Shown here one piece after another: positions 1,789 through 26,842 of a DNA stretch of 32,000 nucleotides. Position numbers and translations under genes: made by a program. This DNA is from Candidatus Saccharimonadota bacterium (GTDB taxonomy: Bacteria > Bacillota_I > Bacilli_A > Mycoplasmatales > Hepatoplasmataceae): contig AP027133.1 of assembly GCA_027925325.1 (NCBI GenBank), positions 420,001-452,000 on the forward strand, in the 5' to 3' direction. How positions within the stretch are numbered: position 1 is the stretch's first letter; every line of letters starts with the position of its first letter. The notes under the pieces were generated by a model. That model saw only the letters and a list, made by a program, of their open reading frames with translations. It ran no database searches and was not told where the DNA came from.

Positions 1789-2382
1789 TTAAAGATATTC
1801 TAAAAATATTTTTTTAACTGCTAATAAATTAAATTTATTGATTGAGGAATATAAAATAACTTCATCAAGATCTAAAATTTGCTTAATATTTTTTTTAAAA
1901 GCAGCTTTTTCTTTTTGTGTAACTTTATCTAATTTTGTTCCAATAATTTTAAATTGTAAGTTATTTTTTTTAAAATAATCAATCATTAATAAATCATCTT
2001 GAGAAATTTTTCTTCTAATATCTAAAAGCAAAATTGCTAATTTTAAATTTTTTCGTTCACTAAAATATTTATCTAATAAAATTGCAAATCTTTTGATTTG
2101 ATCTTTACTTACATTTGCATATCCATAACCAGGAATATCAACCAAACGAAATTTATCATTAACACTAAAAAGGGAAAGAGCACGTGTTTTCCCTGGCTTA
2201 TTTGATTTCTTCGCAAGTTTTTGGTTATTACCGATTGTATTTATAAAAGTCGATTTTCCGACATTTGATCGTCCGACTATCACAATCTCTTTAAGATTAT
2301 CGTTTGGCAATTTACTAAGGTCACTTGTTGTAAATAAATATTTTATATTTTTTAAATAAAAATTATCTGATTGATCATTCAA
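1789..2382 (-). CDS. engB: ribosome-biogenesis GTPase EngB/YsxC
   Basis: G1 motif GRSNVGKST, G3 motif DIPGYG and G4 motif TKLDK are present, with typical length. The only usable start in the open frame is TTG 2380-2382, because TAG lies at 2401-2403 upstream. Confidence 0.9.
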   Translation of the reverse strand: MNDQSDNFYLKNIKYLFTTSDLSKLPNDNLKEIVIVGRSNVGKSTFINTIGNNQKLAKKSNKPGKTRALSLFSVNDKFRLVDIPGYGYANVSKDQIKRFAILLDKYFSERKNLKLAILLLDIRRKISQDDLLMIDYFKKNNLQFKIIGTKLDKVTQKEKAAFKKNIKQILDLDEVILYSSINKFNLLAVKKIFLEYL

Positions 2383-3535
2383 AACGCTTCACCCCGATTC
2401 CTAGAAAAAAAATGATCATGATAAGAGGGGTAAATGAATAAAGAATTGATGTTTTATCTGATATATCAAATAAAACAAATGGATCGATGAAAAATTTAAG
2501 TCATCTTTCTCCCCCTTCTGAAAATACTGTTGTGATAAAATTTGATAATGGTTCAACATTTTTAAAGACAATAATTAAAGAAACATCATTTCCAAGAAAA
2601 GAGACCGTAGTATCTTTTAAATCATTAAAAAAAGTACTCAAGTAAATTTGATCAGCGACATTTGTTCTTGTTGCATCAGTAAAAGTTTGTGCATCAATTA
2701 TCAAATTATCCCATTCTCAATTTTGTACATTTCCTAGTTTATTAAATAAAAGATCGGTAACTTCTGTTGCCTGTTGTGGTGTAAGTCCTGCTTGTGCTAA
2801 TAAATCATTAATAAAATCATAACTCGCATCATTTGATAATGCCATTACCATCGTTTGATTTGAATAGTAATTGGGAGCGATATATCTTAAATCTAATAAA
2901 AACTCAATTCCGGGAACGGCTTCACTTTTCCCAAAAACAAAAAAATTAGGAATTGAAGTATATGTACCAAACATAAAAAATAATAGATAAAAAAATGACC
3001 ACAGATATAAGGTAGTACTTGATTTTGAAAATGAAATCAAAAGAAAAGTTAATCCATAGGCTAACACAATTGCTAAGATAAGTGAATATAAATAAAGTCC
3101 TCAATTTACATCTGCTCAATAAATATCACCAGAAAGTAATTCTAAAAATTTTTGATCAGATCAAAATGTTCAATCTGTAGCAAGAAAAGTATTATCACCG
3201 ATCGTAAGTAAAAAAACAATCAATGAGATAATTACAATCAAAATTAACGTAAACAAAAAAGCAACAAAAAGATTGACCATAAAAACCCTTGTCTTGCTTA
3301 AATTTGTAAGTGACATCGATTTTATCATCGATGTCTTTCTAATCTCAAGAATTGTCCCACCAAAAAGAAAAAAGGCAATCATGATAATCGAGATGGAAAG
3401 CGTAGTCGCATAAATGTAACTAACAGGAACAATTTGTCCCAATCCAAATAAAAAGGCCACTGGAAAGATAATTGAAATATAAGTAAAAGGTGATTTTAAA
3501 TATTGTTTTAATAATGTTTCAAAATAATATCACAT
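2363..3535 (-). CDS. ABC-2-type transporter permease, paralogue 2 (390 aa)
   Basis: Track fragments 2501..2704, 2717..3067 and 3170..3460 share one frame. All gaps contain only sense or TGA codons. Start is ATG 3533-3535 (MWYYFETLLKQYLKSPFTYISIIFPVAFLFGLGQ) and stop is TAA 2363-2365. The N-terminus and the EIRKTSMIKSMSLTNLSK loop match the neighbouring permease. Confidence 0.8.
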
Positions 3536-3591: not shown

Positions 3592-5028
3592 TTATCTTAT
3601 CGATCATTTAAAGTAATGAATGCCGATTCAACCAAAAACAATTATCAATGCTAACGGTAAAAATGCATTTAACATTGAATCTACATTTCCTCAATTTCAT
3701 GGCTCCGTACTTGAAAATACTCGTGCCAATCCATCTAAATTCTCGAGAACAAGTCTTAAATATAAACTAATATTTTCTGACATTTCAGCACTAATTTGTC
3801 CACTTCCATCAATCATAATTGCTAGTTGACGTGAATCTGGATCACCTATTATCTGATAATTAAGATCAAAAATAGAAACGACAATATTACCTGATAATTC
3901 TCCTTCTGGAATTAAGCCTCCAGGACCAGGAATTAAAACAATATCAATTTCAACTTGATTTATTAAAAATGTTTGCGAATCAGGATTTAAAATAAACATT
4001 AAGAGTGAATCATCTAATTCGCCCGATAAGGTTGCACTAGAAATTGCAATGCTAGCGGTATTTGCGATTGTTTCGCCAAATTCATAATCGATAACTGTGA
4101 TTATTAATGGTTCGATATCGAGATTTTGCAATTGTCCATGCGCACTCAATAATTTAAATAAACCTGAATCAAATCCTAGTGCTGAAATATCATCACTTGT
4201 TATTTTGGTAAGATCACCATCCAAACTTAAAACATAATTTCCTAATGTACTGATATCATCTCTTACTAATGGAATATTAATATATTTTTTTAAAGTCTCA
4301 ACAAAATCTGATTCTAAAAATTTAGCAAGATATGAATTATTTGATGCTAGAGCTGATGACATTAATTGATTTGTATAATAATGAGGGATAAATTTATAAA
4401 CATTTTGCGCCGGTGAATTGACAAACATTCCTAAAACAACCGGAAGAATAACCCCTCCTAAGATTAAAATCAAAAGAAAATATAAAATCGAAATAATATA
4501 AAGAGCATTTGTTGTTTTCGTAAAGGAAATAATTACAAAGGTAATAGAATAAGATAGACAGACAGTAAGAATTACGGCATAAATAAAGGTAAATCAATAA
4601 ATTTGATCTCAATTAATATCAAAATTTAGTAATATAAGTGGATTCGGATAATCTCTTAAAAAATTTGAAAAATCAACCGCAAGATATCCGGCCTGATATA
4701 TGCCATAAGAAAAAGCTAAAATCACAATCGTTGTAAAAATTGCAAAGGAAGTTGCAACAATAACATTTATTGAAAAAATCATTGATTTTGATAATTTTGT
4801 AAGCGACATCGATTTTATCAATGAGGTTCGCCTAACCTCTTGAATCGATCCCCCAAATAAAAATAAAATTGTAATTACAATTGCAATTGTAATTGCTGAT
4901 GGAATAACAATCGCAGCTGGAATTAACTTTCCTAATCCTAAAATTAAAATAAAAGGAAAAAGAAACGCCGAATAGGTATATGGTGATTTTAAATACTGCT
5001 TAAATAAGATCTTTGTATAATAATACAT
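3592..5028 (-). CDS. ABC-2-type transporter permease, paralogue 1, with a ~240-aa extracytoplasmic domain (478 aa)
   Basis: Fragments 3697..4473 and 4609..5028 are in frame. The 4474-4608 gap and the 3' extension were checked codon by codon, with TGA at 4609, 4594, 3697, 3691, 3628 and 3604. Stop is TAA 3592-3594. N-terminus: MYYYTKILFKQYLKSPYTYSAFLFPFILILGLG. Confidence 0.8.
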
Positions 5029-5045
5029 CTATGATTCCCTTTATT

Positions 5046-7553
5046 TTAATTTTCTATCTTCTTATCTTTAATTTTTTCTGAAATATTATAACTATTTTCT
5101 GTTGTGTCTGTTTTAAAATTTAAACTATTCAGATTAATTAATTTATCATTGATATCCTTATAAATATCAACAAAAATTTTTCTCACATTTGCAAGTGTCA
5201 TCTTTTTAACATTATGAATTTGAACAACTTTACCTTCTTTTAAAATTATAAGTTTATCAACCAAGCGATAAACCTCTGCTGGATTATGACTTATCAAAAC
5301 AAGGTTGGCATTTGTTTGATCTAAATAATATTTAATATACTTATTGATCTCTTCGATCGATTCTACATCAAGCCCGGTTGAAATTTCATCTAATATTAAT
5401 AAACTCGGTTGTTTTAAAAGAGCGATAATTACATTTAGTCGTTGTCTCTCTCCTCCTGATAAGATATCTCCATTTGATTTTAAAATATGATCTAATTTAA
5501 AGATATTAACTAATTTTCAAAGCTCTTCCTCTGAAATAGCTCACATTGATGTATTTAAAAATAACAATAAAATATCTTTTACATTTAAATCAGAAGGAAA
5601 TTTAGATTCTTGAAACTGCATTCCAATTTCATGTTTTGCGATTGATTTTGTCGGTGCAAAATAATATTTAATTCTTCCTGTCGTACTTTTTAAAGTTGTC
5701 GCTAAAATCTCAGTAAGCGTTGTCTTTCCGCTTCCATTCGGACCGGTAATTGCAACCCTTTCTCCTTTATTAAAATTAAGCATCACGCCATCAACAGCCG
5801 GTTTTATTCCAAAATATTTTTTAACATTGATAATTCTTATCTGTTCTTTTTGATAATTTCGATAAAGTTCATTATTAAAAATTTGTGGATATTGCGAAGG
5901 AATTTCTTTTAATAAATTATATTGATTATTTAAATAAATTTTATCTTCTTCAATAACATCTTGTTTATGAGAAATATCTTTTTTGATTGTATTTAAATAT
6001 TCCTCATTTAAAATTATTTTCTTGTTTTTTTTAGCAATTTTTTTATTTTTAGCTAATTCTTCTTTACTTTGTTTTTGTCTGTGCAGCAAGCGTTTATTTT
6101 GATCTTTATCTATGCTCAAAATTTCGATTAACCTTTGATAAATATCGATTGATTTTTCTTGAATTTCATAAATTTTATCTTCGATTTTATTTAATTTTGA
6201 ATTTTCTCTTCAAATCTTACGATCGATTCGATTAATTTTACGATCGATAAGATTCTTAGTACGTTTTTTCGATTGATTTAATTCAATCGTCTGTTCAATA
6301 AATTTATCTTTTTTTTCATTTAAAGAATCAATCTTGTCTTGATAATAATCAATTCCGGTTTTTATTTCAATAATTTTTGTATTTTTTCGATCGATGTAAA
6401 GTTTAAATTTTAAAACTTCGTTATATTTTTTCTTAATAGCTTCTCTAAAGCGATAAATTGAATTATAAAACCGTCCACGAATATATTCTTTTTCGATATT
6501 AAATTTAAATTCGAAATCTATTTCTTCTTCATTTCGCTTGATAAAATCATAAAAATTACTTTCATTTAAATTATTAGAAGGCATTTCAAGCAAAATTTTG
6601 CCATTTTTTAATAAAAAAACCTTATTTGTAAGATTCTTAATTTCATCTAAATTATGTGAAATTAAAATAACGGTAACATTATTTTTTTCGATATATTTTT
6701 TAAATAACTTAACAACTCTTTCATAAATATTAATATCAAGACCGGTTGATAATTCATCTAAAATTAATAATTTTGGTTTTTTAATAAACGCAAGAAAAAG
6801 ATTGACTCTTTGTTTTTGTCCACCTGAAAGTGAAATTAGATTTTTATTATAAAATTTATCAATTCCAAATTCACGAATTAAAATTTTAAGTTCTTGATTC
6901 GTATATCTTATTTTTTTATTAACCATTCGATTAAAAAAAACAATAATCTCGCTAACCTTATATCCCTCAGGATAATTTAATTTTTGAAACTGAATTCCAA
7001 TGCTATCACCCAAATCCTCTCTTGATTTACCAAAGTAATAAATCAGTTCACCCGAAGTTGCATTTTTAACACCAGAAATAATATCTGCAAGCGTTGTTTT
7101 TCCTGAACCATTATGACCGATAATTGAAACTCGCTCCCCTTTTTTTATTTTTAAATTAACACCTTTTAAAACTTCTTTTTTACCAAAATTTTTATATACC
7201 TCTTTTAATTCGATAAAATAATCATTTTTAAAAATACTTTCAAATTCTTTAATTCTTGCAAAATATTTATTTTCTTCTTCATTTACCAAAACAAGTTTTT
7301 CTTCTAATGCATCAATTTCTTTTACAAAATTTTCAAAATCTTTTTTATTATTTAAACTATCTAATTGATCTTTTTTTTCGATCGTTTTACTAATTCGTTT
7401 TTTTAAACGATCTTTATCATCAATTATTAATTTATATTTATTTATAACTCTTAGATATTCAACATTTAAGAAAGTAGTCTTAAAATCAACTTTTGAAATT
7501 TTTCTACTTTCACTTTGTTTATCTTGCTTTGAATTATCAAATTTATTTTCCAT
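5046..7553 (-). CDS. ABC transporter ATP-binding protein with two complete NBDs in one polypeptide (835 aa from ATG 7551-7553)
   Basis: Track ORFs 6210..7577, 5541..6119 and 5046..5297 share one frame. The 6120-6209 linker has no TAA or TAG. NBD1 has GHNGSGKTT, LSGGQKQRV, LLILDELSTGLD and ISHN. NBD2 has GPNGSGKTT, LSGGERQRL, LLILDEISTGLD and ISHN. K/E-rich coiled-coil-like segments precede each NBD. Confidence 0.85.
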
Positions 7554-7624: not shown

Positions 7625-8953
7625 TTAATATTTTTTTAAGTAGGCGATAGCAAATCCTAGACATCAATAAAAAATTATATTGACATAAGGAAAAGTTAGC
7701 ACTAATCATCAACCAGCATTTGTCGCTCTAAAAGGTAAAAATTCTATTTTTGTAATCACATCAGGTGAATTAAGGGCAACAACTTGATTATCATAAACTG
7801 TAAAAACAAAAATATCTGTAAAATCAGGGAAATCAGGATTGTTAATAGGCGGAACATAATTAGGATCATATGGAATAATATCCATATTAGCGTAAAAGGC
7901 ACTAAAAAGCATTTGATTTACATGATAAAAAGGGAAAATTTGTGACAATACTCATAAAAATGATCGTGTATCTAAATCACCAAAATTTGTTACCTCATAA
8001 TATCGATAATTAATAATTGTTTTCTCATCTTCAGAAATATATGACATATCATGAATATACATCTGTGTCGGTGCGATTTTTATTACATAAGGATCAATTT
8101 CTGTTCCACTTCCGCTTATTCTTACATAATCAGAATTTAAATTAATAAAAAAACCTTTGTATTCAAATTGTGAAATTCCATTATCATAAAATTTACTAAA
8201 ATCAACCTTTGTTCCCTCAATGTTTGGTCCGAAGGCAAAAAATAGACATCCACCAAAAATTAAATTTAACAAAATTATCCCTGATGTAATCACAAAAAAA
8301 CCTTTAATTGTATTTAAATTTGCTTGAATTGCAAATGATAAGGCAAAAGTAATTGATGTGATTAAAAATAGACAATAAACAATTATTCCTCAGCCAATTG
8401 ATGTAAATGAATAATTAACTGCAAAAAATTGCTGTCCTTGAAACCTAGGCACACCTGTAGGATAAGGAAAAACGGGCCATATTACATTTATTCAATACAT
8501 CAAAAGCGTAAAAAACATCGTAAAGAGCATTACGATAATATTAGAAAATAACATTAATAAAAAAATTGATGTATAGATATAAAAACGATATTTAATATTA
8601 ATTGAAAAACTATTATAGAAAGTGGAATTCCGAATATTATAAAAATAAATTCCGTAAACCAAAAAACCACTAATTAAAAAATTAAATGATAAAGTTGGTG
8701 TAACCGAAAAATAGGGGGGAAAAACAAGACACATCGTAATTAACATGATTGAACAGATTAATAAAATATAAATTGTTGAAATCGATGTAAAATATTTACG
8801 AAAAAATAATCACAGAATATTTAAGAAACTCTGCTTTATAGCATGAAAATCTTTATAAACTTTCATCTCTGAATCTAATTTTAATGAAATTTTTTGTTCT
8901 GCCGTTAACCCTTTTTTATTTTTTGAATTTGCCTCGCTTGTTAACTTTTCCAT
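7625..8953 (-). CDS. ABC-2-like permease paralogue 3 (442 aa)
   Basis: Fragments 7709..7948, 7952..8293 and 8492..8746 share one frame, and all gaps were checked. Start is ATG 8951-8953 (MEKLTSEANSKNKKG...FRKYFTSISTIYILLICS) and stop is TAA 7625-7627. It has multiple TM runs and a large loop before the last helices. Confidence 0.75.
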
Positions 8954-8955
8954 AG

Positions 8956-10098
8956 TTACCACTTACGTTGATAATAAAAGTATTTTAACATTTTGTATTG
9001 TTTTTTTACAAAAAAGAGTTCAATCAAAAATAAATAGACAAAATTAAAGATAAACGATCCAAATAAAACAAAATCTCAAAGAATATTATCAAAATAAAGA
9101 TAATCGATCTTTACAGATTGATTTAAATATGAACTGCCCACAAGATCAGGATTTTGTAATAAAAGGTTAATATAATCTTGCACATTGTTATAAGACATTG
9201 TTATATTTGCAAACATAAATCTTGTAACCGTATTTATATATCAAAATGGATTAAGTAGCGAAAAAACAAACGGAGCGATCTGATCTTGATATTCTATTTC
9301 TGATTTAATTACAATTAAACCACTCGTAGAATCATAGTAACTATTAGCATTAGTAAGAGGACTAGGATAAAATCAAAATTGGAGTACACTTCCAAAACAA
9401 AATGAGTAAAAAAGGATAAAAACACTAACATATAGAAATTTAGATTCTTTTTTGATAAAAATACTAAAAAATAAAGCAATCAAAAAAGTCGTAATTGTCG
9501 TTTGAAAGAAAAAAAAGAAAAAAAGAATTCAATTAATCGAATTAAAATTTAACGTAATATTTGTAAGTGAAATACTAAAATTAAAAAATCATTCATTATA
9601 AACAAACCCTATTTGAATCAAAATAAATATTAAAAGCGAAACATAAATCGTAATCAAAATATTTGAGATAAAAACCATCAATAAGGTTGATGCATATAGA
9701 TTTTTTAATTTTACTTTATGATATTTAACTAAAGAAGATGATTTAATTCGAAAAAAAGAGGTAGCAAAAATAAAAAATGTCGATAAAATTAAAGAAACCG
9801 AATATACACCTGCTGTAAGTATATACATCGGTGCGATTGTGCCAATAAAGACGATAAATAAAACGGGAATAAAATATAAAAAAATAGTTGTAAATGAAGT
9901 AAAATACTTTTTTAAATGAAAATAGAACATCTCAAAAAAATCAATATTTTTATCGATATACAGATTAGATTTTATAATCTCTTGTAAATAAGGAATATCA
10001 AAATCGACTTTTCATTGATCTATTTTACGATTAATTTTGTCAAATGATTTATTTTTCTTACCTTGTTTTTTATTTTTATTATTTTTAATTATATTCAC
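8956..10098 (-). CDS. ABC-2-like permease paralogue 4 (380 aa from GTG 10096-10098; 324 aa if ATG 9928-9930 is used)
   Basis: Track ORF 9589..9930 continues through TGA codons to TAA 8956-8958, and 8959-9588 was checked for stops. The frame is open upstream to TAA 10099-10101, with GTG 10096-10098 as the only start codon there. That start would add a basic cytoplasmic N-extension like that of paralogue 3. Motif: HLKKYFTSFTTIFLYFIPVLFIVFIG. Confidence 0.7.
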
Positions 10099-15208: not shown

Positions 15209-15655
15209 CTAATTAATTTCTTTGCTTTTTTGTTTTTCAATTTTTTTTTGTTTCTTTTCTGATTTCTTTTCTAATTTCTTTTCTTGTTTAGAATTAATTT
15301 TAATAATTGAATAATTTCTTCATTTTGCAAAATATTTTTTCATAAATATTGCAAAAAATTGTAAAACAATCCAAAAAACACCGCAAACTATTATTGCAAC
15401 AGTATACATCTCTGCATCATCATTTAAAATAACATTATAAGAATTAACTCCGACCAATATAATAAATATTGGAAAAATTAACATAAATAAAATTCGTGAT
15501 AAAAAAGTAAAAAAACGATATCAAAAATAACCAACATTAGGTTTAATTTTAACATCTATTTTTGAAGTAAAATTACTGATTGAACTTTTTATTTTTTTAT
15601 TTATTTTAGCTATTTTTGCTTTTAATTTAATAAAAAAATTTTTAATTTTTGACAC
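15209..15655 (-). CDS. small membrane protein (148 aa), absent from the ORF track because of two internal TGA codons
   Basis: GTG 15653-15655 is preceded by AAAGGA (15661-15666) at 5-nt spacing. The frame is open to TAG 15209-15211, checked codon by codon. It has a basic N-terminus, two hydrophobic helices (RILFMLIFPIFIILVGV, VAIIVCGVFWIVLQFFAIF) and a K/E-rich tail. Confidence 0.5.
15251..15286 (-). repeat. 3 x 12-nt in-frame tandem repeat encoding x-E-K-K units in the tail of the small membrane protein
   Basis: tttcttttctga / tttcttttctaa / tttcttttcttg are consecutive and differ only in the last two bases. On the coding strand they read QEKK LEKK SEKK. Confidence 0.85.
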
Positions 15656-15769: not shown

Positions 15770-16075
15770 CTAAATTAATTCAATTATCGCGATATAAAAA
15801 AGCCCAAGTGATATCAATAAAAATACAAATCCTGTAAAAATTATTATATTGTATTTATATTCATATCAAAATCCTTTAAAAGACCCGATTGATTTATTTT
15901 CTCTGTCTCTTCTAACTCTTGAATTTCATTGATTTCTTTTTTGTGAAAAATACATCCAAAAAAACCAAAAAGTTAAAGCAAGAAACAAAACCCCTACAAT
16001 TAACTCTACAATCGCAACAGTCTGATCTTGCTCTGCTGTTAAATTTTCTGCAACAAATAATCAATTAACACTCAT
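15770..16075 (-). CDS. small membrane protein (101 aa, two TM helices), absent from the ORF track because of internal TGA codons
   Basis: The frame runs from ATG 16073-16075 to TAG 15770-15772, checked codon by codon: MSVNWLFVAENLTAEQDQTVAIVELIVGVLFLALTFWFFWMYF...IIIFTGFVFLLISLGLFYIAIIELI. Confidence 0.5.
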
Positions 16076-16169
16076 AGTTAGATATAGATTTATTTTAATT
16101 ATTAAAATTCTCTTTTCTATATTTTAAATAAATATTTATTTATTTAAAATAAAAAAAACAAAAAATAAA

Positions 16170-16185
16170 ATTTGTATATACAAAT
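16170..16185. promoter_or_regulatory. 16-bp perfect palindrome ATTTGTATATACAAAT: candidate HutC/GntR operator, or alternatively a weak intrinsic terminator stem
   Basis: The core GTATATAC fits the HutC-subfamily GT-N-TA-N-AC operator signature. It lies 1 nt after the stop of the upstream gene and about 95 nt upstream of ATG 16075. On the minus-strand transcript it is followed by TTTATTTTTTGTTTTTTTT. Confidence 0.35.
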
Positions 16186-16186
16186 A

Positions 16187-18427
16187 CTATTTTATATTAT
16201 TTACAATATGATTATTTTCTAACTTTTTGTTTCGATTATTTTTATAACTAATTGTTCTAAATCTTTCTCCTACCGGTTTATAAACATTAAAAAAATTATG
16301 ACTTTTTAAAGAATTTTTTGAAATATAAAATAATAAATCTTTGCTTTTTGAACTTTTTAATTTATTGATTCAATCTTCTGTAATATTTATTGTTTCAAGA
16401 TATTTACCATCATAAAAAAAAGTAACTCTTTTTGTAAATAATTGGATAAATTTTAAATTATTTACGAAGACAAAAATCGTAAATTTATAATCTTGATTTA
16501 TTGTATTTAAATTACGGACGATCTCAGATAATTTAATATCATAATTATCAAGTAAATAATCATCAATTATTATTAATCTGCTATCAATAATAAGTAAATT
16601 TAATAATTGCACTAAAATTTTGCTATTTATATCTAATTTTTGATATTTAAGTCTTAAATTATCATCCGAAAAATTTAAATATTTTGAAAATGTTTTTAAT
16701 CTCTGATTAAATAATTCTTCCTCAAATTTATTGAATTTTTTTGCTCTAAAATCATCATATTTTTTGTAAATTTCTTTTAGTTCATTTTTTAATTGTATAA
16801 CTTGTTGATTTTGCTTTAAAATTGCTTTTTCATTAAATTCAATTTCCTGATTTTGATTCTCTTGCAAAATGTTTCTTAAAAATAATTTTTTTTGTTCCTT
16901 GAAAAAACGTTCACTTTTATTTAAAGTTAAATTATTTTTAAAAAGTATCTCTTTTAAATAAGATTTTCTCTTTTGATAATCAATTATTTTATCTTGCATT
17001 TCTTTTTTATAAACATATTTTTGCAGTTTTTCACGATCTTTTGAACTTTTGATCTGCCAATCATAATAATTTTTATATTTGCCATAAATTTCATTTATTT
17101 TCTCAGCAATAATTTTATGAAATTTTTTTAAATAAGAAATATCATAAAAAAAATAAGCACTGCCAAAAAAGTCAATTAAACCGATAAAATAATTATGTAA
17201 ATTTTCCAAAATAAAAATTTGGTAATTATAATGTTTAACATCGGCAAGATAAAGATTTATTTCAAATTTACCTTGTTCTTTTAATTTTATATCCTCTCTT
17301 ACTTTTTTGATATCAAATATTAAATATTCGATTTCTTTAATATTATTTCTAACATATAAGCTAAGATAGTTATATGTTATGCGATTAATTTTAGTATTTA
17401 TAATACTTTTTTCAAATAAAAGATTATTAATATAATTCTTAAATTCTTCAATTTTAAATTTGATATTTTCTTTAATTTTATCTTGATTTTTATTAATAAT
17501 ATTTAAAACATTCTCTCAAACAGATTCAATTTTTATTTCTGTTATATTATTTTTTTCTAAATTTTTAATCTGTAAGAATAAATGCATTCTAATAGGGTTT
17601 GTAAGCAAAAAATTATGTTTTTCTCCACTTTCTAAAATTAATAGACGGATAAATCTTTTGATTTCATTTTTAATATTATTAAAATCTCTCTGATCAAGAG
17701 AGTATTTCTTAATTAAATTAAATTCTCTTAAACTAAGAAAATATCATACTTTATTGATATCTTTAAAAAAATGTAAAGTTTTTTTTCATTCTCTTTTCTT
17801 TTCTTTTAATTGATAAATATTAAAAAAATATTTTTTATCAAGATATTTGATATTTCTTTGATAAATATTTTTTTCGCGTGCAATTTTTATTTTAATTGCC
17901 TTGATTTCTTCTAAAATTTCAAAAAAGTCAAAATTATCATATTTAAAAAATTTCTTTTTTTCTTCATTAAAAAAATCTTCTGTTAATTCTTTTAATGAAA
18001 AATTTGATTTTGGTAATTTATTTTTAATCTCTTTTATTTTATTTTCAAGATTATCTATTTTTAATTTAAAATCCTTTATTTTTGTTTTAAATTCATTTTT
18101 TGCATAATCAGATTTTACAAATTTATAAAATAAATTAAGATAAACATCATGTCTTTTGGAATAGTTTTCATTCAATAATAAATTAGCTTTTGAATATCTT
18201 CCACCCTGATCAAAAATAAATTCTTCTTTTTTTCTTGATTCATTTAAATTATCAATAAATAATCATTTTAAGCGCTTTAATTGCTCTTGATCATTACTTA
18301 AAAAAGAATGAATCTCACCTTTTTTAATATTTAAATTAAAATCATTAATTACTAAATTAAGATTCTTATCACGCAATGCAAGATTATTAATTTTTAAAAA
18401 CAACGATTCATTTAATTTTTGTTTCAT
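16187..18427 (-). CDS. degenerate OppF-like ABC nucleotide-binding-domain homologue split by a ~550-aa coiled-coil-like insertion (746 aa); catalytic motifs absent
   Basis: A single frame runs from ATG 18425-18427 to TAG 16187-16189. All of 17210-17785, 18176-18427 and 16187-16369 was checked, and track ORFs 17786..18175 and 16370..17209 are in it. The N-terminus LKINNLALRDKNLNLVINDFNLNIKKGEIHSFLSNDQEQLK lacks a P-loop. The C-terminus reads KLDINSKILVQLLNLLIIDSRLIIIDDYLLDNYD...FTIFVFVNNL...RVTFFYDGKYLE. Confidence 0.6.
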
Positions 18428-18438
18428 TTAATTTTCCG

Positions 18439-19341
18439 TTAATATATTTTTGGTTTAATAAATTGTGTTAAATTCAAATCACTATATAATCAAGAATAAA
18501 CAAAATGATTTTTATTTATATGTTTCTTTAGTGGGAGTAATAAAAGTTCAATATTTAAAATATAATTTTTATTAAAATCAAATAAATTTTTATTAAAATC
18601 ATATTTTAAATATTGAAAATATGAAAAAAAGTTATCATAAACTAAATCTTGACTTTTTAGAATAATTTCTCATGTGATTGGATGATAAGGATTCTCAACA
18701 ATTTCTTTGATATCTCCTCCTTCTACAATTCTATTATCAAAAATAATCGCACACTCATCAACTATCGAACTAAGTAAAGCAATATTATTCGATATCATCA
18801 ATACTGTTAATTTATCATGAAAAGAATTAATAAATAATTTTAAATCAAGAATCTCATTTGCATTTAATTTTTGATCAATATTTTCAATAATAACTAATTC
18901 TGTTTTTAAAATTAATGCTTTTAAAATTGATAATTTGATAAGCTCAATTTTTTTAAGTTCCTTAAATTTTTTGTAATGATAAATCGTTCCGATTTCTCAA
19001 TTAATCATCGTATAAAAATCAATTAGATTTTTATTTGCAAAATCCTTATTAAATTTAGAATTTATTAATAAATTTAAATAAATTTGTTTTCCAATCGAAA
19101 TTCTTTTATTAAATGAAAAATTATTTTTTTCTGAAATATAAATAAGAGAGATGTTTTTAAATACCTTCTCATTTTTATTCAATTCAAAAAAATTGACAAA
19201 AAAATTATCGTTATCAATTTGTAAAAAACCAAAATAAGAATTTTTTTTAACTTTAAAATCAAGATATTTAATTATCTTTGTTTTATCTTTAAAATCATAA
19301 TGTTTATAATCGATTACTTCCAAGATAAATTTTTTTTCCAT
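18439..19341 (-). CDS. degenerate OppD/DppD-like ABC nucleotide-binding-domain homologue (300 aa); catalytic motifs absent
   Basis: Track ORF 18997..19341 continues through TGA 18997-18999 to TAA 18439-18441, checked codon by codon. It is collinear with the OppD-type NBD, including ENPYHPIT (the P.HPYT motif). However, it has QIDNDNFF for Walker A, LKKIELIK for the signature, LVIIENID for Walker B and MISNN for the His switch. Confidence 0.6.
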
Positions 19342-19399
19342 ATGTAATTATTTCAAAAATTAATGATACTATAATTATCCTTAAAAACTAATTTTATTC

Positions 19400-20257
19400 T
19401 TAATTATTTTCAATTTTTAATTTCATTGCATAATTACAAGCGACAATAAATAAGAAAGTGACAAAAATTTTACTTGGAACCAAATATGTTGAGCTAAATA
19501 ATCTTTCATAAAATTCTAATTTAAAAGGAATATTAAAAGCATAAAATTGCGAATAAGGTCTTATAATAAAACCAGTAAAAATTCTTGCAATAATGAAAAT
19601 GATCGTGAGATAAACAAGTAGCATTAAATTCTCTTTTTTATATTTATATACATAAAAAAATAATAATTCAAGTAAAACTATGAAAATTGGTGAAATTATC
19701 ACAAGAACAAGTAATGAATTCTTTAAAAATTCCTGTTCTTCTCCTTGCTGACCAAGAAAATAAACAAGAATAAAACAAATTGCCAAGAAAGAAAATAGAG
19801 CGATTTGAAAAATCCAAAATTGTGTTTTTATATTCAAATCTTTTTTTCGATTACGATAATTTTCTCCCAAAACACCTGCCACAAGACCTGTAAAAGGAAA
19901 AATTAAAAAAGGTAATGGAAGCGGAACTCAACCATTTAATAGTGTTCTTGATAAATCAGCAATCGCACCATAAATTATCGCTTCTACCGGTCCAAATAAA
20001 ATTCCTGTTGCAACAATTGTTGCATCATCAAAACTTAATGGAATTAAATCTGCTGCTTGTGGAATAATCCTTGTAAGAAATGCTTGAAATAAGAATATTC
20101 CATAAAAAAAAGCAAAAATAGGAATTTTATAAATCGTAATAGCTTTACGATTTTGCTTTTTATAAAGAATAAAGTAATAAATTAAGGCAAAGATAATGAT
20201 AGAAGCAAAGGAAAGAAATAATATTCATCAAATTACAGTGTAGTTTACATCTGTCAT
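19400..20257 (-). CDS. ECF-transporter S-component-like membrane protein (285 aa)
   Basis: The frame runs from ATG 20255-20257 to TAA 19400-19402, and 19883-20257 was checked. There are about 6 hydrophobic helices. ATGILFGPVEAIIYGAIADLSRTLLNGW resembles the conserved core of ECF S components. The family assignment is by eye only. Confidence 0.5.
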
Positions 20258-25216: not shown

Positions 25217-26842
25217 TTATCTGCTTATATGATAAGTAATTACCGTCTCATGTGCGATTCTTAAAGCCTCAATTAAATTATCTTTTTGGTAAAAATATTC
25301 CACCTTATTTTTAAGAGATGTAATTTTTTTATCAAAACGATATTTATTAACTATCAAAATTATCTCATTTAAATAAGAAATTAAAAAAAGATCCTTAAAA
25401 ATTTGTTGATAAAAAATTGTAATCTCTTCTTTAAATTTAAAATATTTATCTTTTCATCTTTTATTTTTTAAATTCTTAATTTGATTTAAAAGTAAAGCAA
25501 AAAAATCATTAATTTGTTTGAATTTTTCTTGATACTTTTGTTGATATTTATTTGGTAATTTAAAAAATAAACTTTCAATTTTATAAAAAATAAAATTTAA
25601 TTTTAAGAGATCATCTTCTTTTTTTTGTAATTTTTGTAATTCACTCTTATCTAAAATTATTTTTTGGTATTTTTGTAAATATTCACTTATCAAAAATAAT
25701 TTTTGTAATTTTTTTGCAAAAATATTTTGATTAACTATCTCTTTATTAAGAATATCTTGCTTAAAATTATCAACAATTAATTTTTCAAGCGATAAACTTT
25801 CCTTTATTTTTAAATTGTCATCCTTTATAAATAAAGAATAATTATATCTAATTATTTTTTGATAATCTTTAATTTTACTAATAAAAAAAAGTAAATTTTT
25901 TGTCATTTTATCGATAAATTCTGATTTATTAATAATTTCTCTCATTTTAAAACTAAGTAAATTTAAATTAAAAAAAAGTTTGTCATTTAATTTTTTAACT
26001 TTATTAAAATTTAAATTTGAAAGATATATTTTTAATTTAGTAAAATCATATTTAATTTCTTGGAATTTCTTTTCAAAAATCTTTAAGTAAAAAAATGGAA
26101 TTTTTTGATCTTTAAGTAATTTTTTAATATTTTTAAAAAGAACTTTATATTCAATGTTTATTGATTTATTAATATCTAAGTAAAAAACAAAATTTTGCTT
26201 TAAATTAACTATTTCTTTATTAATTAATGTAATTTTTTTGATAAAATCATCAAGATCAATTTTTGCTGTTGATAATTTTTTGATATTTAAATCGACTTTA
26301 TTAATTTTTTCAAGATATTTACCTTTCAATAAATTTTTTTGATAAATTGAATTTTTTATCTCTTGCAAAAAATTAACAAAAATTTGATTAATTTTGGAAA
26401 TAAGATTTGTTTTTATTTCATTTATTAAATTAAATTCATTAATTTTAAATTTTGTTTTAGCATAGGTAATTTTATAATCAAATTGTAATTGATCAAGTTC
26501 TTTAAGTTTATTTTGAAATTTTTTCTTTCCAAAATAAAATTTTATTTTATTTTCTTGATCTAACTTTTGATATAAAATTTTTAATTTATTAAATGTAACA
26601 TAATTTAAATTTTTAATCGTATCTTCAAGATCATTAAAAATCTCTTGCTCAAAAAAATTATTTTCTTTCTTAAATTGCAAGAAAATTTTATATAGATATC
26701 TAATTTGATATTTATATAAATCATGATAATAAATATTTAAAATTCGTTTACGATTCTGTCTTTCTAATAAAAGAAAGAATCAAAAACTTATAATTAAAAA
26801 TAAAATAAAAATTAATAATAATAAAATTGCCAATATTTCCAT
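25217..26842 (-). CDS. N-terminally membrane-anchored coiled-coil protein, candidate EzrA-like septation regulator (541 aa)
   Basis: The frame runs from ATG 26840-26842 to TAA 25217-25219, and the junctions at 26681-26842 and 25217-25456 were checked. It has a single N-terminal TM helix (MEILAILLLLIFILFLIISFWFFLLL) followed by about 500 aa of K/E/N/L-rich heptad-like sequence. The C-terminal IILIVNKYRFDKK...YFYQKDNLIEALRIA resembles the EzrA C-terminus as I recall it. The gene is adjacent to thiI. Confidence 0.45.

Follow-up and report, generated by a model that had tools for sequence, protein, structure and literature searches.

Two adjacent genes of an uncultured and ecologically widespread isopod gut symbiont, here called A and B, were found to encode relatives of the ATP-binding subunits of Opp/Dpp-type transporters in which every catalytic motif has been replaced. 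Both genes are intact and under purifying selection throughout the genus Hepatoplasma. They lie in a stretch of 32,000 nucleotides (the window; positions 420,001 to 452,000) of AP027133.1, the 606-kb metagenome-assembled genome (MAG) that represents Candidatus Hepatoplasma scabrum Ps-JP, whose host is the woodlouse Porcellio scaber (PMC10928387). Gene A (HPPSJP_3960; 18439..19341, 300 aa, three TGA-Trp codons) and gene B (HPPSJP_3950, BDV03674.1; 16187..18427, 746 aa, five TGA-Trp codons) follow gene S (HPPSJP_3970, BDV03676.1; 19400..20257), which encodes a polytopic membrane protein of 285 aa resembling the S components of energy-coupling factor (ECF) transporters. All three products are named 'hypothetical protein' in the records of this organism, and the product of A is 100 % identical to the recorded HPPSJP_3960. 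The three genes and the features within them are on the minus strand, and coordinates are positions in the window. The best overall explanation, to which we give a probability of about 0.5, is that A and B form a pseudo-ATPase heterodimer serving as a non-motor module, most likely together with S. An earlier note on this DNA, made from its letters and open reading frames, had proposed an OppD/OppF-derived pair that is intact, catalytically dead and kept by selection, and had named three findings that would speak against it: intact ATP-site motifs elsewhere in the proteins, the lack of any significant ATP-binding cassette (ABC) match, and decayed orthologues. This core reading stands, and none of the three was found.

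Homology of A and B to Opp/Dpp ATP-binding subunits

In Pfam searches neither A nor B matched any family at E ≤ 10, PF00005 (ABC_tran) and PF08352 (oligo_HPY) included, and six A-family members gave no match to PF00005 at the same threshold; the positions of the motifs were taken from the HMMER and hhalign alignments. Significant matches to ABC proteins came from HMMER, hhalign and NCBIfam, though only with such sensitive methods. In a HMMER search against PDB, residues 74-228 of A matched Escherichia coli DppF (8z1w_D) with an E-value of 9e-7. Dpp/Opp chains made up nine of the ten best PDB matches of A alone and eight of the ten matches of the A-family profile, the top six included; chains of DppF, DppD, OppD and OppF were all represented. 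The A-family profile aligned to P0012, a canonical Opp/Dpp-type nucleotide-binding domain (NBD), at 95 % (hhalign). Residues 538-679 of B aligned to positions 68-209 of a canonical NBD (hhalign, 96 %, E 3e-9). When the B-family profile was run exhaustively against 1.84 billion representative proteins, the only non-self matches were three weak ones to NBDs, made by its C-terminal part; P0012 and P0013, both canonical Opp/Dpp-type NBDs, were among the matches, and two of the matched NBDs (E 1.8e-5 and 3.9e-4) carry the motif PKHPYT. The best curated match of all five B-family members was NikE (E 4e-5 for B itself). These results show that A and B are homologous to Opp/Dpp-type ATP-binding subunits, with significance in their C-terminal halves. 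The collinearity with OppD and OppF that had been seen by eye was thus borne out for the C-terminal halves and less strongly for the N-terminal ones. In B, residues 19-41 aligned with positions 13-35 of a canonical NBD, which cover its initial strands and its 'KxGE' turn (hhalign E 4e-4), colinear with the C-terminal match.

The two proteins can be assigned to different subunits. The last 108 residues of A matched positions 437-537 of the 561 positions of NF043079, a mollicute OppD model of the Mycoplasma mycoides type (E 6e-6). Residues 136-299 of A also aligned with residues 349-518 of the OppD of a fermentation-metagenome contig, L009 (95 %, E 4e-8), and this alignment included the extension that follows the HPYT motif (HFVYSWLY in A, HYASTWLL in the OppD), whereas the OppF of the same contig was matched less well (75 %). 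Since its C-terminal extension matches NF043079 and the L009 OppD is the better match of the two, A is derived from OppD. B occupies the position of OppF in a gene order that is D-like and then F-like. The A and B families aligned with each other only at E 0.03 (hhalign), each being nearer to canonical NBDs than to the other, and we therefore consider them old paralogues; a recent duplication of A into B was rejected on the same ground. The family-specific C-terminal motif that had been recognised in A is retained as PYHPIT, aligned to PKHPYT or PRHPYT, and no HPY-type motif was found in B. Even so, the oligo_HPY-type model TIGR01727 scored only 14.2 bits on A, against a cut-off of 37.6 bits, though the motif is kept and the extension aligned. 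No NCBIfam cut-off was reached by A or B, neither matched a PADLOC defence model, and ECF_ATPase_2 was matched by just one of the six A-family members (E 7e-4).

Replacement of the ATP-site motifs

The alignments placed a substituted sequence at each motif position of both proteins, in agreement with the replacements listed in the earlier note for Walker A, signature, Walker B and H-loop. At the Walker A position (canonical GESGSGKT) A has QIDNDNFF (residues 41-48, 19198..19221), in a register that is not significant on its own, and B has SNDQEQLK, within the N-terminal part of its NBD (residues 1-76, 18200..18427; hhalign). The signature (canonical LSGGE) is LKKIE in A and LDINS in B, and Walker B (canonical LVILDEP) is LVIIENI in A and LIIIDDY in B. 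In A both elements lie within residues 129-155 (18877..18957; alignments to DppF and P0012), and the Walker B Asp has become Glu or Asp and the catalytic Glu Asn, some orthologues reading LIILDN. In B the Walker B Asp is kept and the catalytic Glu is replaced by Asp. The H-loop (canonical ISHD) is ISNN in A (residues 183-186, 18784..18795; alignments) and FVNN in B, the His being Asn in both. The B versions of the last three motifs are contained in the C-terminal part of the NBD (residues 538-700, 16328..16816; hhalign 96 %, E 3e-9). At the Q-loop the stretch YISEKNN of A contains no Gln, as had been stated; the change of Gln to Ile given there depends on gap placement, which aligns either I69 or E71. 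In B, Q545 aligns to the Q-loop Gln and is not conserved (Ile or Lys in orthologues).

A regular-expression scan of A and B in seven genomes (that of the window plus six other genomes or MAGs of Hepatoplasma, among them H. crinochetorum Av, Tokyo2021 and Ps), and of the other reading frames of the region, detected no Walker A (GxxxxGK[ST]), SGG or H-loop motif; the sole survivor was the Walker-B-like hhhhDD of B. Intact motifs are thus not to be found elsewhere in these proteins. The substituted positions are conserved in themselves, the segment at the Walker A position of A reading LQ[IV][DE]ND.FF.NFF in all orthologues. An internal control was provided by a tandem ABC protein of 835 aa encoded in the same window (5046..7553), which has two complete motif sets and matched PF00005 with an E-value of 6.6e-51 (172.9 bits). 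Loss of the motifs through AT bias was therefore rejected.

Every catalytic motif has been replaced in both A and B, and residues of each class of the ATP site are lost. The P-loop Lys and Ser, the signature, the catalytic Glu and the H-loop His have established roles in the ATP site, and for this reason A and B very probably can neither bind nor hydrolyse ATP. It might still be argued that A and B drive an Opp-type importer whose OppB, OppC and OppA are encoded elsewhere, using a non-canonical nucleotide site; public annotations do name their orthologues as ABC ATP-binding proteins, and B does keep the Walker-B-like element. This we find very improbable, because both proteins lack all the residues just listed and, by the established mechanism of ABC proteins, a consensus ATP site remains necessary even in transporters whose other site is degenerate.

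Purifying selection throughout the genus

S, A and B were present at full length and in the same order in all six further genomes. Within the genus A and B were 70-78 % identical (B orthologues 70-74 %), compared with 49-66 % for whiA and a neighbouring protein of 541 aa. The ratio of non-synonymous to synonymous substitution rates (dN/dS) was calculated by the Nei-Gojobori method (NG86) under genetic code 4 between three divergent lineages, with bootstrap limits. It was 0.22-0.28 for A (upper limit 0.42; 0.09 in a closer pair), 0.24-0.31 for B (upper limit 0.39; 0.14 in a closer pair) and 0.09-0.15 for S. The neighbouring genes gave 0.21-0.30 (thiI), 0.13-0.24 (hprK), 0.39-0.46 (whiA) and 0.26-0.46 (the GntR gene), so that A and B equal thiI and lie below whiA and GntR. 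Since dS was about 0.6-0.9 and possibly saturated in this AT-rich DNA, the absolute ratios are rough, and the comparison with neighbouring genes is the robust statement.

The reading frames told the same story. Given the base composition of the window, a TAA or TAG codon should turn up roughly every 13 codons (by arithmetic), so the open frames of A and B are not due to chance. Single-nucleotide changes can create a stop codon by 135 paths in A and by 376 in B, and a neutral divergence of 0.3 per site would predict about 13.5 and 37.6 stops per lineage, respectively; none was observed. We conclude that A and B are intact and under purifying selection throughout Hepatoplasma, as the earlier note had argued from the open frames of a single genome. 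The alternative that they are recently decayed pseudogenes, or chance reading frames with spurious similarity to ABC proteins, is scarcely credible to us. It would account for the lack of any Pfam ABC_tran match, but not for intact genes in seven genomes at such dS, for dN/dS well below 1 or for homology that was significant independently in HMMER, hhalign and NCBIfam. For the pseudogene version, the full-length orthologues, a dN/dS of 0.22-0.31 with upper limits of no more than 0.42, and the absence of stops amount to a refutation.

Constraint was distributed by domain. The most constrained stretch of A is residues 191-225 (18667..18771), which comprise the last strands and end in the retained PYHPIT; here dN/dS was 0.03-0.11 and the sequence is nearly invariant across the genus. 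Residues 185-300 as a whole are almost invariant, and their last part, residues 226-300 (18442..18666), is the OppD-type C-terminal extension that aligns to NF043079 and the L009 OppD. In B, the NBD parts gave 0.16-0.26 (residues 1-76, 0.16-0.24), the core of the insert described below 0.15-0.28 and its flanking arms 0.28-0.56.

In the searches made, both families were found only in Hepatoplasma. Single-sequence and profile searches with A returned only Hepatoplasma proteins even at E ≤ 10, a scan of genome contigs recovered only H. crinochetorum Ps, and a metagenome scan yielded a single distant canonical OppD (that of L009); these searches brought up no Tyloplasma or other intermediate form. 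Within the genus the two proteins are better conserved than whiA or the 541-aa neighbour, a pattern consistent with a phase of rapid change ahead of the radiation of the genus and with stabilising selection after it. One may also ask whether A and B are merely weakly selected relics of a lost Opp permease, with no specific new function, kept on because the folding or stability of a partner, or expression of the operon, might still need them. The window holds no gene for an Opp permease or binding protein, both families are confined to one genus, and dN/dS is moderate rather than very low, all of which would suit relics. Relics should hardly, on the other hand, match thiI and fall below whiA and GntR in dN/dS, show no stops in seven genomes where dozens are expected, or carry constraint patterned by domain as described above, and we hold this explanation to be quite improbable.

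The insert in B

The NBD of B is interrupted by a lineage-specific helical insert of about 460 aa (residues ~77-537, 16817..18199), the bounds of which were taken from the two hhalign matches and place it between the Walker-A subdomain and the Q-loop strand. The earlier description of this region as a coiled coil of about 550 aa requires correction in both length and character. A crude scan for heptads against shuffled sequences did flag four short segments, residues 105-140 (strong), 236-264, 320-354 and 533-563, and no others, so that most of the insert is not heptad-like. Its core of about 270 aa (residues 201-470, 17018..17827) is rich in Ile, Phe and Tyr, and 66-74 % of its columns are invariant. 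On this evidence the core is a conserved domain held between variable helical arms and not a generic coiled coil. No homologue of the insert was detected in Pfam, NCBIfam, PDB or the library of 1.84 billion representatives, neither the insert nor the N-terminus of B matched NCBIfam when searched alone, and no internal repeats were found in B. An AlphaFold2 (AF2) model of a B orthologue, built on a four-sequence alignment, was mostly helical, at low confidence (pLDDT 38.5). A perfect palindrome, CTCTCTGATCAAGAGAG, occurs within the core at 17686..17702 (codons ~242-248, SLDQRD) and was flagged by a consensus scan as terminator-like on both strands; its presence inside gene B is probably coincidental.

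Insertions at the same site occur in other Opp ATPases. L009 carries a canonical oppABCDF operon (L009:2018-8146; 39 % G+C, code 11); in its OppD (538 aa) and OppF (541 aa) the catalytic motifs are all intact, and K/E-rich helical insertions lie inside the NBD. In OppF a K-rich insertion of about 50-70 aa lies in the same place as that of B, and in OppD one of about 200 aa follows the Q-loop. The OppC of this operon is unusually long (633 aa). The OppF proteins of Mycoplasma genitalium and M. pneumoniae are about 850 aa long. Given the insertion of the L009 OppF and the 561 positions of the mollicute OppD model, B resembles a remodelled, extreme case of a tendency in this lineage to insert sequence into Opp ATPases.

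An NBD split by a helical insert of some 460 aa invites comparison with SMC and Rad50 proteins, and A and B might instead be soluble and have nothing to do with S, forming a structural or adaptor complex in which B acts as a miniature SMC/Rad50-like protein, with a split ABC head, helical arms and a distal domain, in cell architecture or host attachment. The heptad-like segments early in the insert (105-140) and at the junction with the C-terminal NBD part (533-563) would suit such a protein, weak matches to the Rad50 coiled coil and hook were seen (E 0.12), and synteny is uninformative on any link to S. The Rad50 matches fell short of significance and probably reflect composition; the greater part of the insert is not heptad-like; no match to the SMC (SMC_N) or RecF family was obtained with A or B; and the spacing of S, A and B resembles that of an operon. 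We regard an SMC-like complex as unlikely.

S and the proposed role of the pair

S matched PF07155 (ECF-ribofla_trS) with 30.9 bits over residues 41-180, above the gathering score of 26.7, in keeping with its earlier labelling as ECF-S-like; a match to TIGR04518 stayed below the cut-off. In S an invariant stretch at residues 233-263, RPYSQFYAF.IPFKLEFYER, is a candidate cytoplasmic helix for contact with A and B. The gene is co-oriented with A, 58 nt upstream of it and 7 nt downstream of whiA, and no EcfT-like gene was found near it. Genes for OppA, OppB or OppC were absent from the window, as the earlier note had stated, and also from the 20-kb orthologous loci.

From these data we propose the following. 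The retained NBD core and the almost invariant C-terminal domain of A would allow A and B to pair permanently, as a heterodimer independent of nucleotide; in Opp/Dpp transporters of solved structure, the C-terminal domain packs the two NBDs together. Such a constitutive heterodimer has about an even chance of being real. The insert of B would leave the NBD at the site where related Opp ATPases have K/E-rich insertions and present its conserved helical domain of about 270 aa on two variable helical arms as a new functional surface. The pair would then be a non-motor module, a scaffold, adaptor or regulator, and the likeliest place for it is the membrane. Its likeliest partner would be S, which might function as a facilitator, with A and B holding or gating its cytoplasmic face; a link to S at the membrane is suggested tentatively and must be called doubtful. 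The fullest form of the proposal, in which a doubly dead heterodimer has been reused and permanently partners a lone ECF-S-like membrane protein on its cytoplasmic side, B having gained a new domain of about 270 aa on helical arms, strikes us as improbable.

Several observations weigh against this proposal. The AF2 models were unusable (pLDDT 40.9 for A with a six-sequence alignment, and the value given above for the B orthologue). Residues 27-46 of A align with positions 24-43 of a canonical NBD in the expected register at an E-value of 0.39, which is not significant alone, and the absolute dN/dS values are rough, as mentioned. S, with about eight hydrophobic segments in 285 aa, is atypical for an S component, and no relative of it was found in PDB by single-sequence or profile search. 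Opp-type NBDs are not known to partner ECF S components. Finally, gene order throughout the region is collinear in the genus, and the conserved adjacency of S, A and B therefore says little; it does not sustain a functional link to S.

In its fullest form the proposal would make the pair a transporter-associated scaffold or gate assembled from motor subunits that are dead, and such a kind of module has not yet been described. ABC NBDs are among the most strongly conserved enzymes, and a doubly dead pair under selection would be a clear case of a motor turned pseudoenzyme and a natural experiment on what an NBD dimer does without ATP. Since genomes of about 600 kb rarely keep 1,046 codons without use, the pair marks a function, probably a non-enzymatic one, and labels such as 'ABC transporter ATP-binding protein' on its orthologues mislead metabolic reconstruction.

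Gene layout of the locus

The window has 23.8 % G+C and shows a continuous array of minus-strand genes only if TGA is read as Trp (genetic code 4). Under this code the reading-frame coordinates, strand and lengths given earlier for the three genes were exact. The gene order is parC, a gene for a helical membrane protein of 541 aa, thiI, hprK, lgt, trxB, whiA, S, A and B; after B come two genes for small membrane proteins and then a PTS EIICB and a GntR gene. The intergenic gaps measure 7 nt (whiA-S), 58 nt (S-A), 11 nt (A-B) and 111 nt (B to the next gene). Directly after the stop codon of B, at 16151..16185 on the minus strand, an AT-only hairpin with a T-run may mark the end of a transcription unit; its folding energy was -7.4 kcal/mol with a z-score of only -1.35, and hairpins likewise follow B at three orthologous loci. 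The tight spacing together with this hairpin suggests, weakly, that S, A and B, perhaps including whiA, form one transcription unit. A promoter and terminator scan gave 94 promoter-like sites against 68 expected and is uninformative in DNA this rich in AT.

The two small conserved membrane proteins encoded directly downstream of B (15770..16075, 101 aa; 15209..15655, ~148 aa with a K-rich tail; both on the minus strand) could not be assigned to a family and could belong to the same functional unit as S, A and B. The longer one has a GTG start in this genome. Between parC and thiI, the 541-aa protein (25217..26842, minus strand) has an N-terminal transmembrane segment and a long K/N-rich helical body; it has no Pfam match, is 49-59 % identical within the genus and shows the highest dN/dS of the block (0.38-0.67). 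In one Hepatoplasma assembly (L004:6239-8188; Logan ERR14048305) lgt and trxB were called as a single product of 649 aa, which may reflect fusion of the genes, loss of a stop codon or an error of assembly; the two are separate genes in the window and at the other loci. The 835-aa ABC ATPase used as a control above (minus strand) carries long K/E-rich helical regions before its first NBD (~120 aa) and between its NBDs (~230 aa), and is flanked by four polytopic membrane proteins without a Pfam match (2363..3535, 3592..5028, 7625..8953 and 8956..9930). The architecture of this tandem-NBD ATPase is itself unusual.

Comparison with known systems

The earlier note knew of no description of such a pair. 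This holds for the literature, where our searches met no account of a conserved pair that has lost both sites, nor of the inserts of mycoplasma OppF, and it needs qualifying for the databases, where orthologues have been annotated automatically as ABC ATPases and a related curated family, NF045976, exists. An A orthologue (P0005 / WP_025208832.1) was named 'oligopeptide/dipeptide ABC transporter, ATP-binding protein' and later 'hypothetical protein' in RefSeq, and a B orthologue (P0009 / CRX36983.1) 'ABC-type antimicrobial peptide transport system, ATPase component'; as the ATP-site motifs are missing, neither functional name is justified. The Hepatoplasma genome papers do not discuss the A and B genes, and one of them calls the amino-acid transporters 'as-yet unknown'.

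The best relatives of A and B are OppD/OppF, DppD/DppF and NikD/NikE, as in E. coli DppBCDF (8z1v) and Mycobacterium tuberculosis OppABCD (8j5q). With these they share the colinear NBD core and the common gene order of a D-like followed by an F-like gene, and A keeps the (P)xHPxT motif and the OppD-type extension. They differ in the replacement of all catalytic motifs and in having no adjacent OppA, OppB or OppC in the window. The C-terminal domain of A also lacks a Cys cluster, and its single Cys could not hold an Fe-S site such as Dpp/Opp structures show. Among the insert-bearing Opp ATPases (the MMSYN1_0167-type OppD of NF043079 and the L009 proteins), the C-terminal extension aligns with that of A, and the L009 OppF has its K/E-rich helical insertion between the Walker-A subdomain and the Q-loop, as B does. 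The L009 proteins, however, retain intact Walker A, signature, Walker B and H-loop within an oppABCDF operon, and the insert of B is much longer than theirs, with a conserved core that has no detectable homologue.

The top curated match of all six A-family members was NF045976, the 'MAG1360 family OppF-related protein' of Mycoplasmopsis agalactiae type. It was the only match that spanned residues 9-250 of A, with a best E-value of 3e-10 among the family. A scored 33.8 bits against a cut-off of 200 bits and is therefore not a member, the comparison being made through the 777-position model, which has about 460 extra N-terminal positions relative to A. This family belongs to the lineage sister to Hepatoplasmataceae, and its name points to an OppF derivative of a non-standard kind. 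No paper on the MAG1360 family was found in the published literature; the family may be a precedent in that lineage. ECF transporters (S with EcfA, EcfA' and EcfT) resemble the locus in that an S-component-like membrane protein is encoded beside two NBD-like proteins; here the latter are dead and of the Opp/Nik type, not the CbiO/EcfA type, there is no EcfT-like gene, and S exceeds typical S components by about 100 aa. ABC transporters in which one site is degenerate, such as the heterodimeric type I exporters, are well known (reviewed in PMC7756269). They likewise combine non-consensus Walker B, H-loop and signature residues with a conserved NBD fold, but they preserve one consensus site for ATP and have Walker A intact in each of their NBDs, whereas A and B have dispensed with the P-loop altogether.

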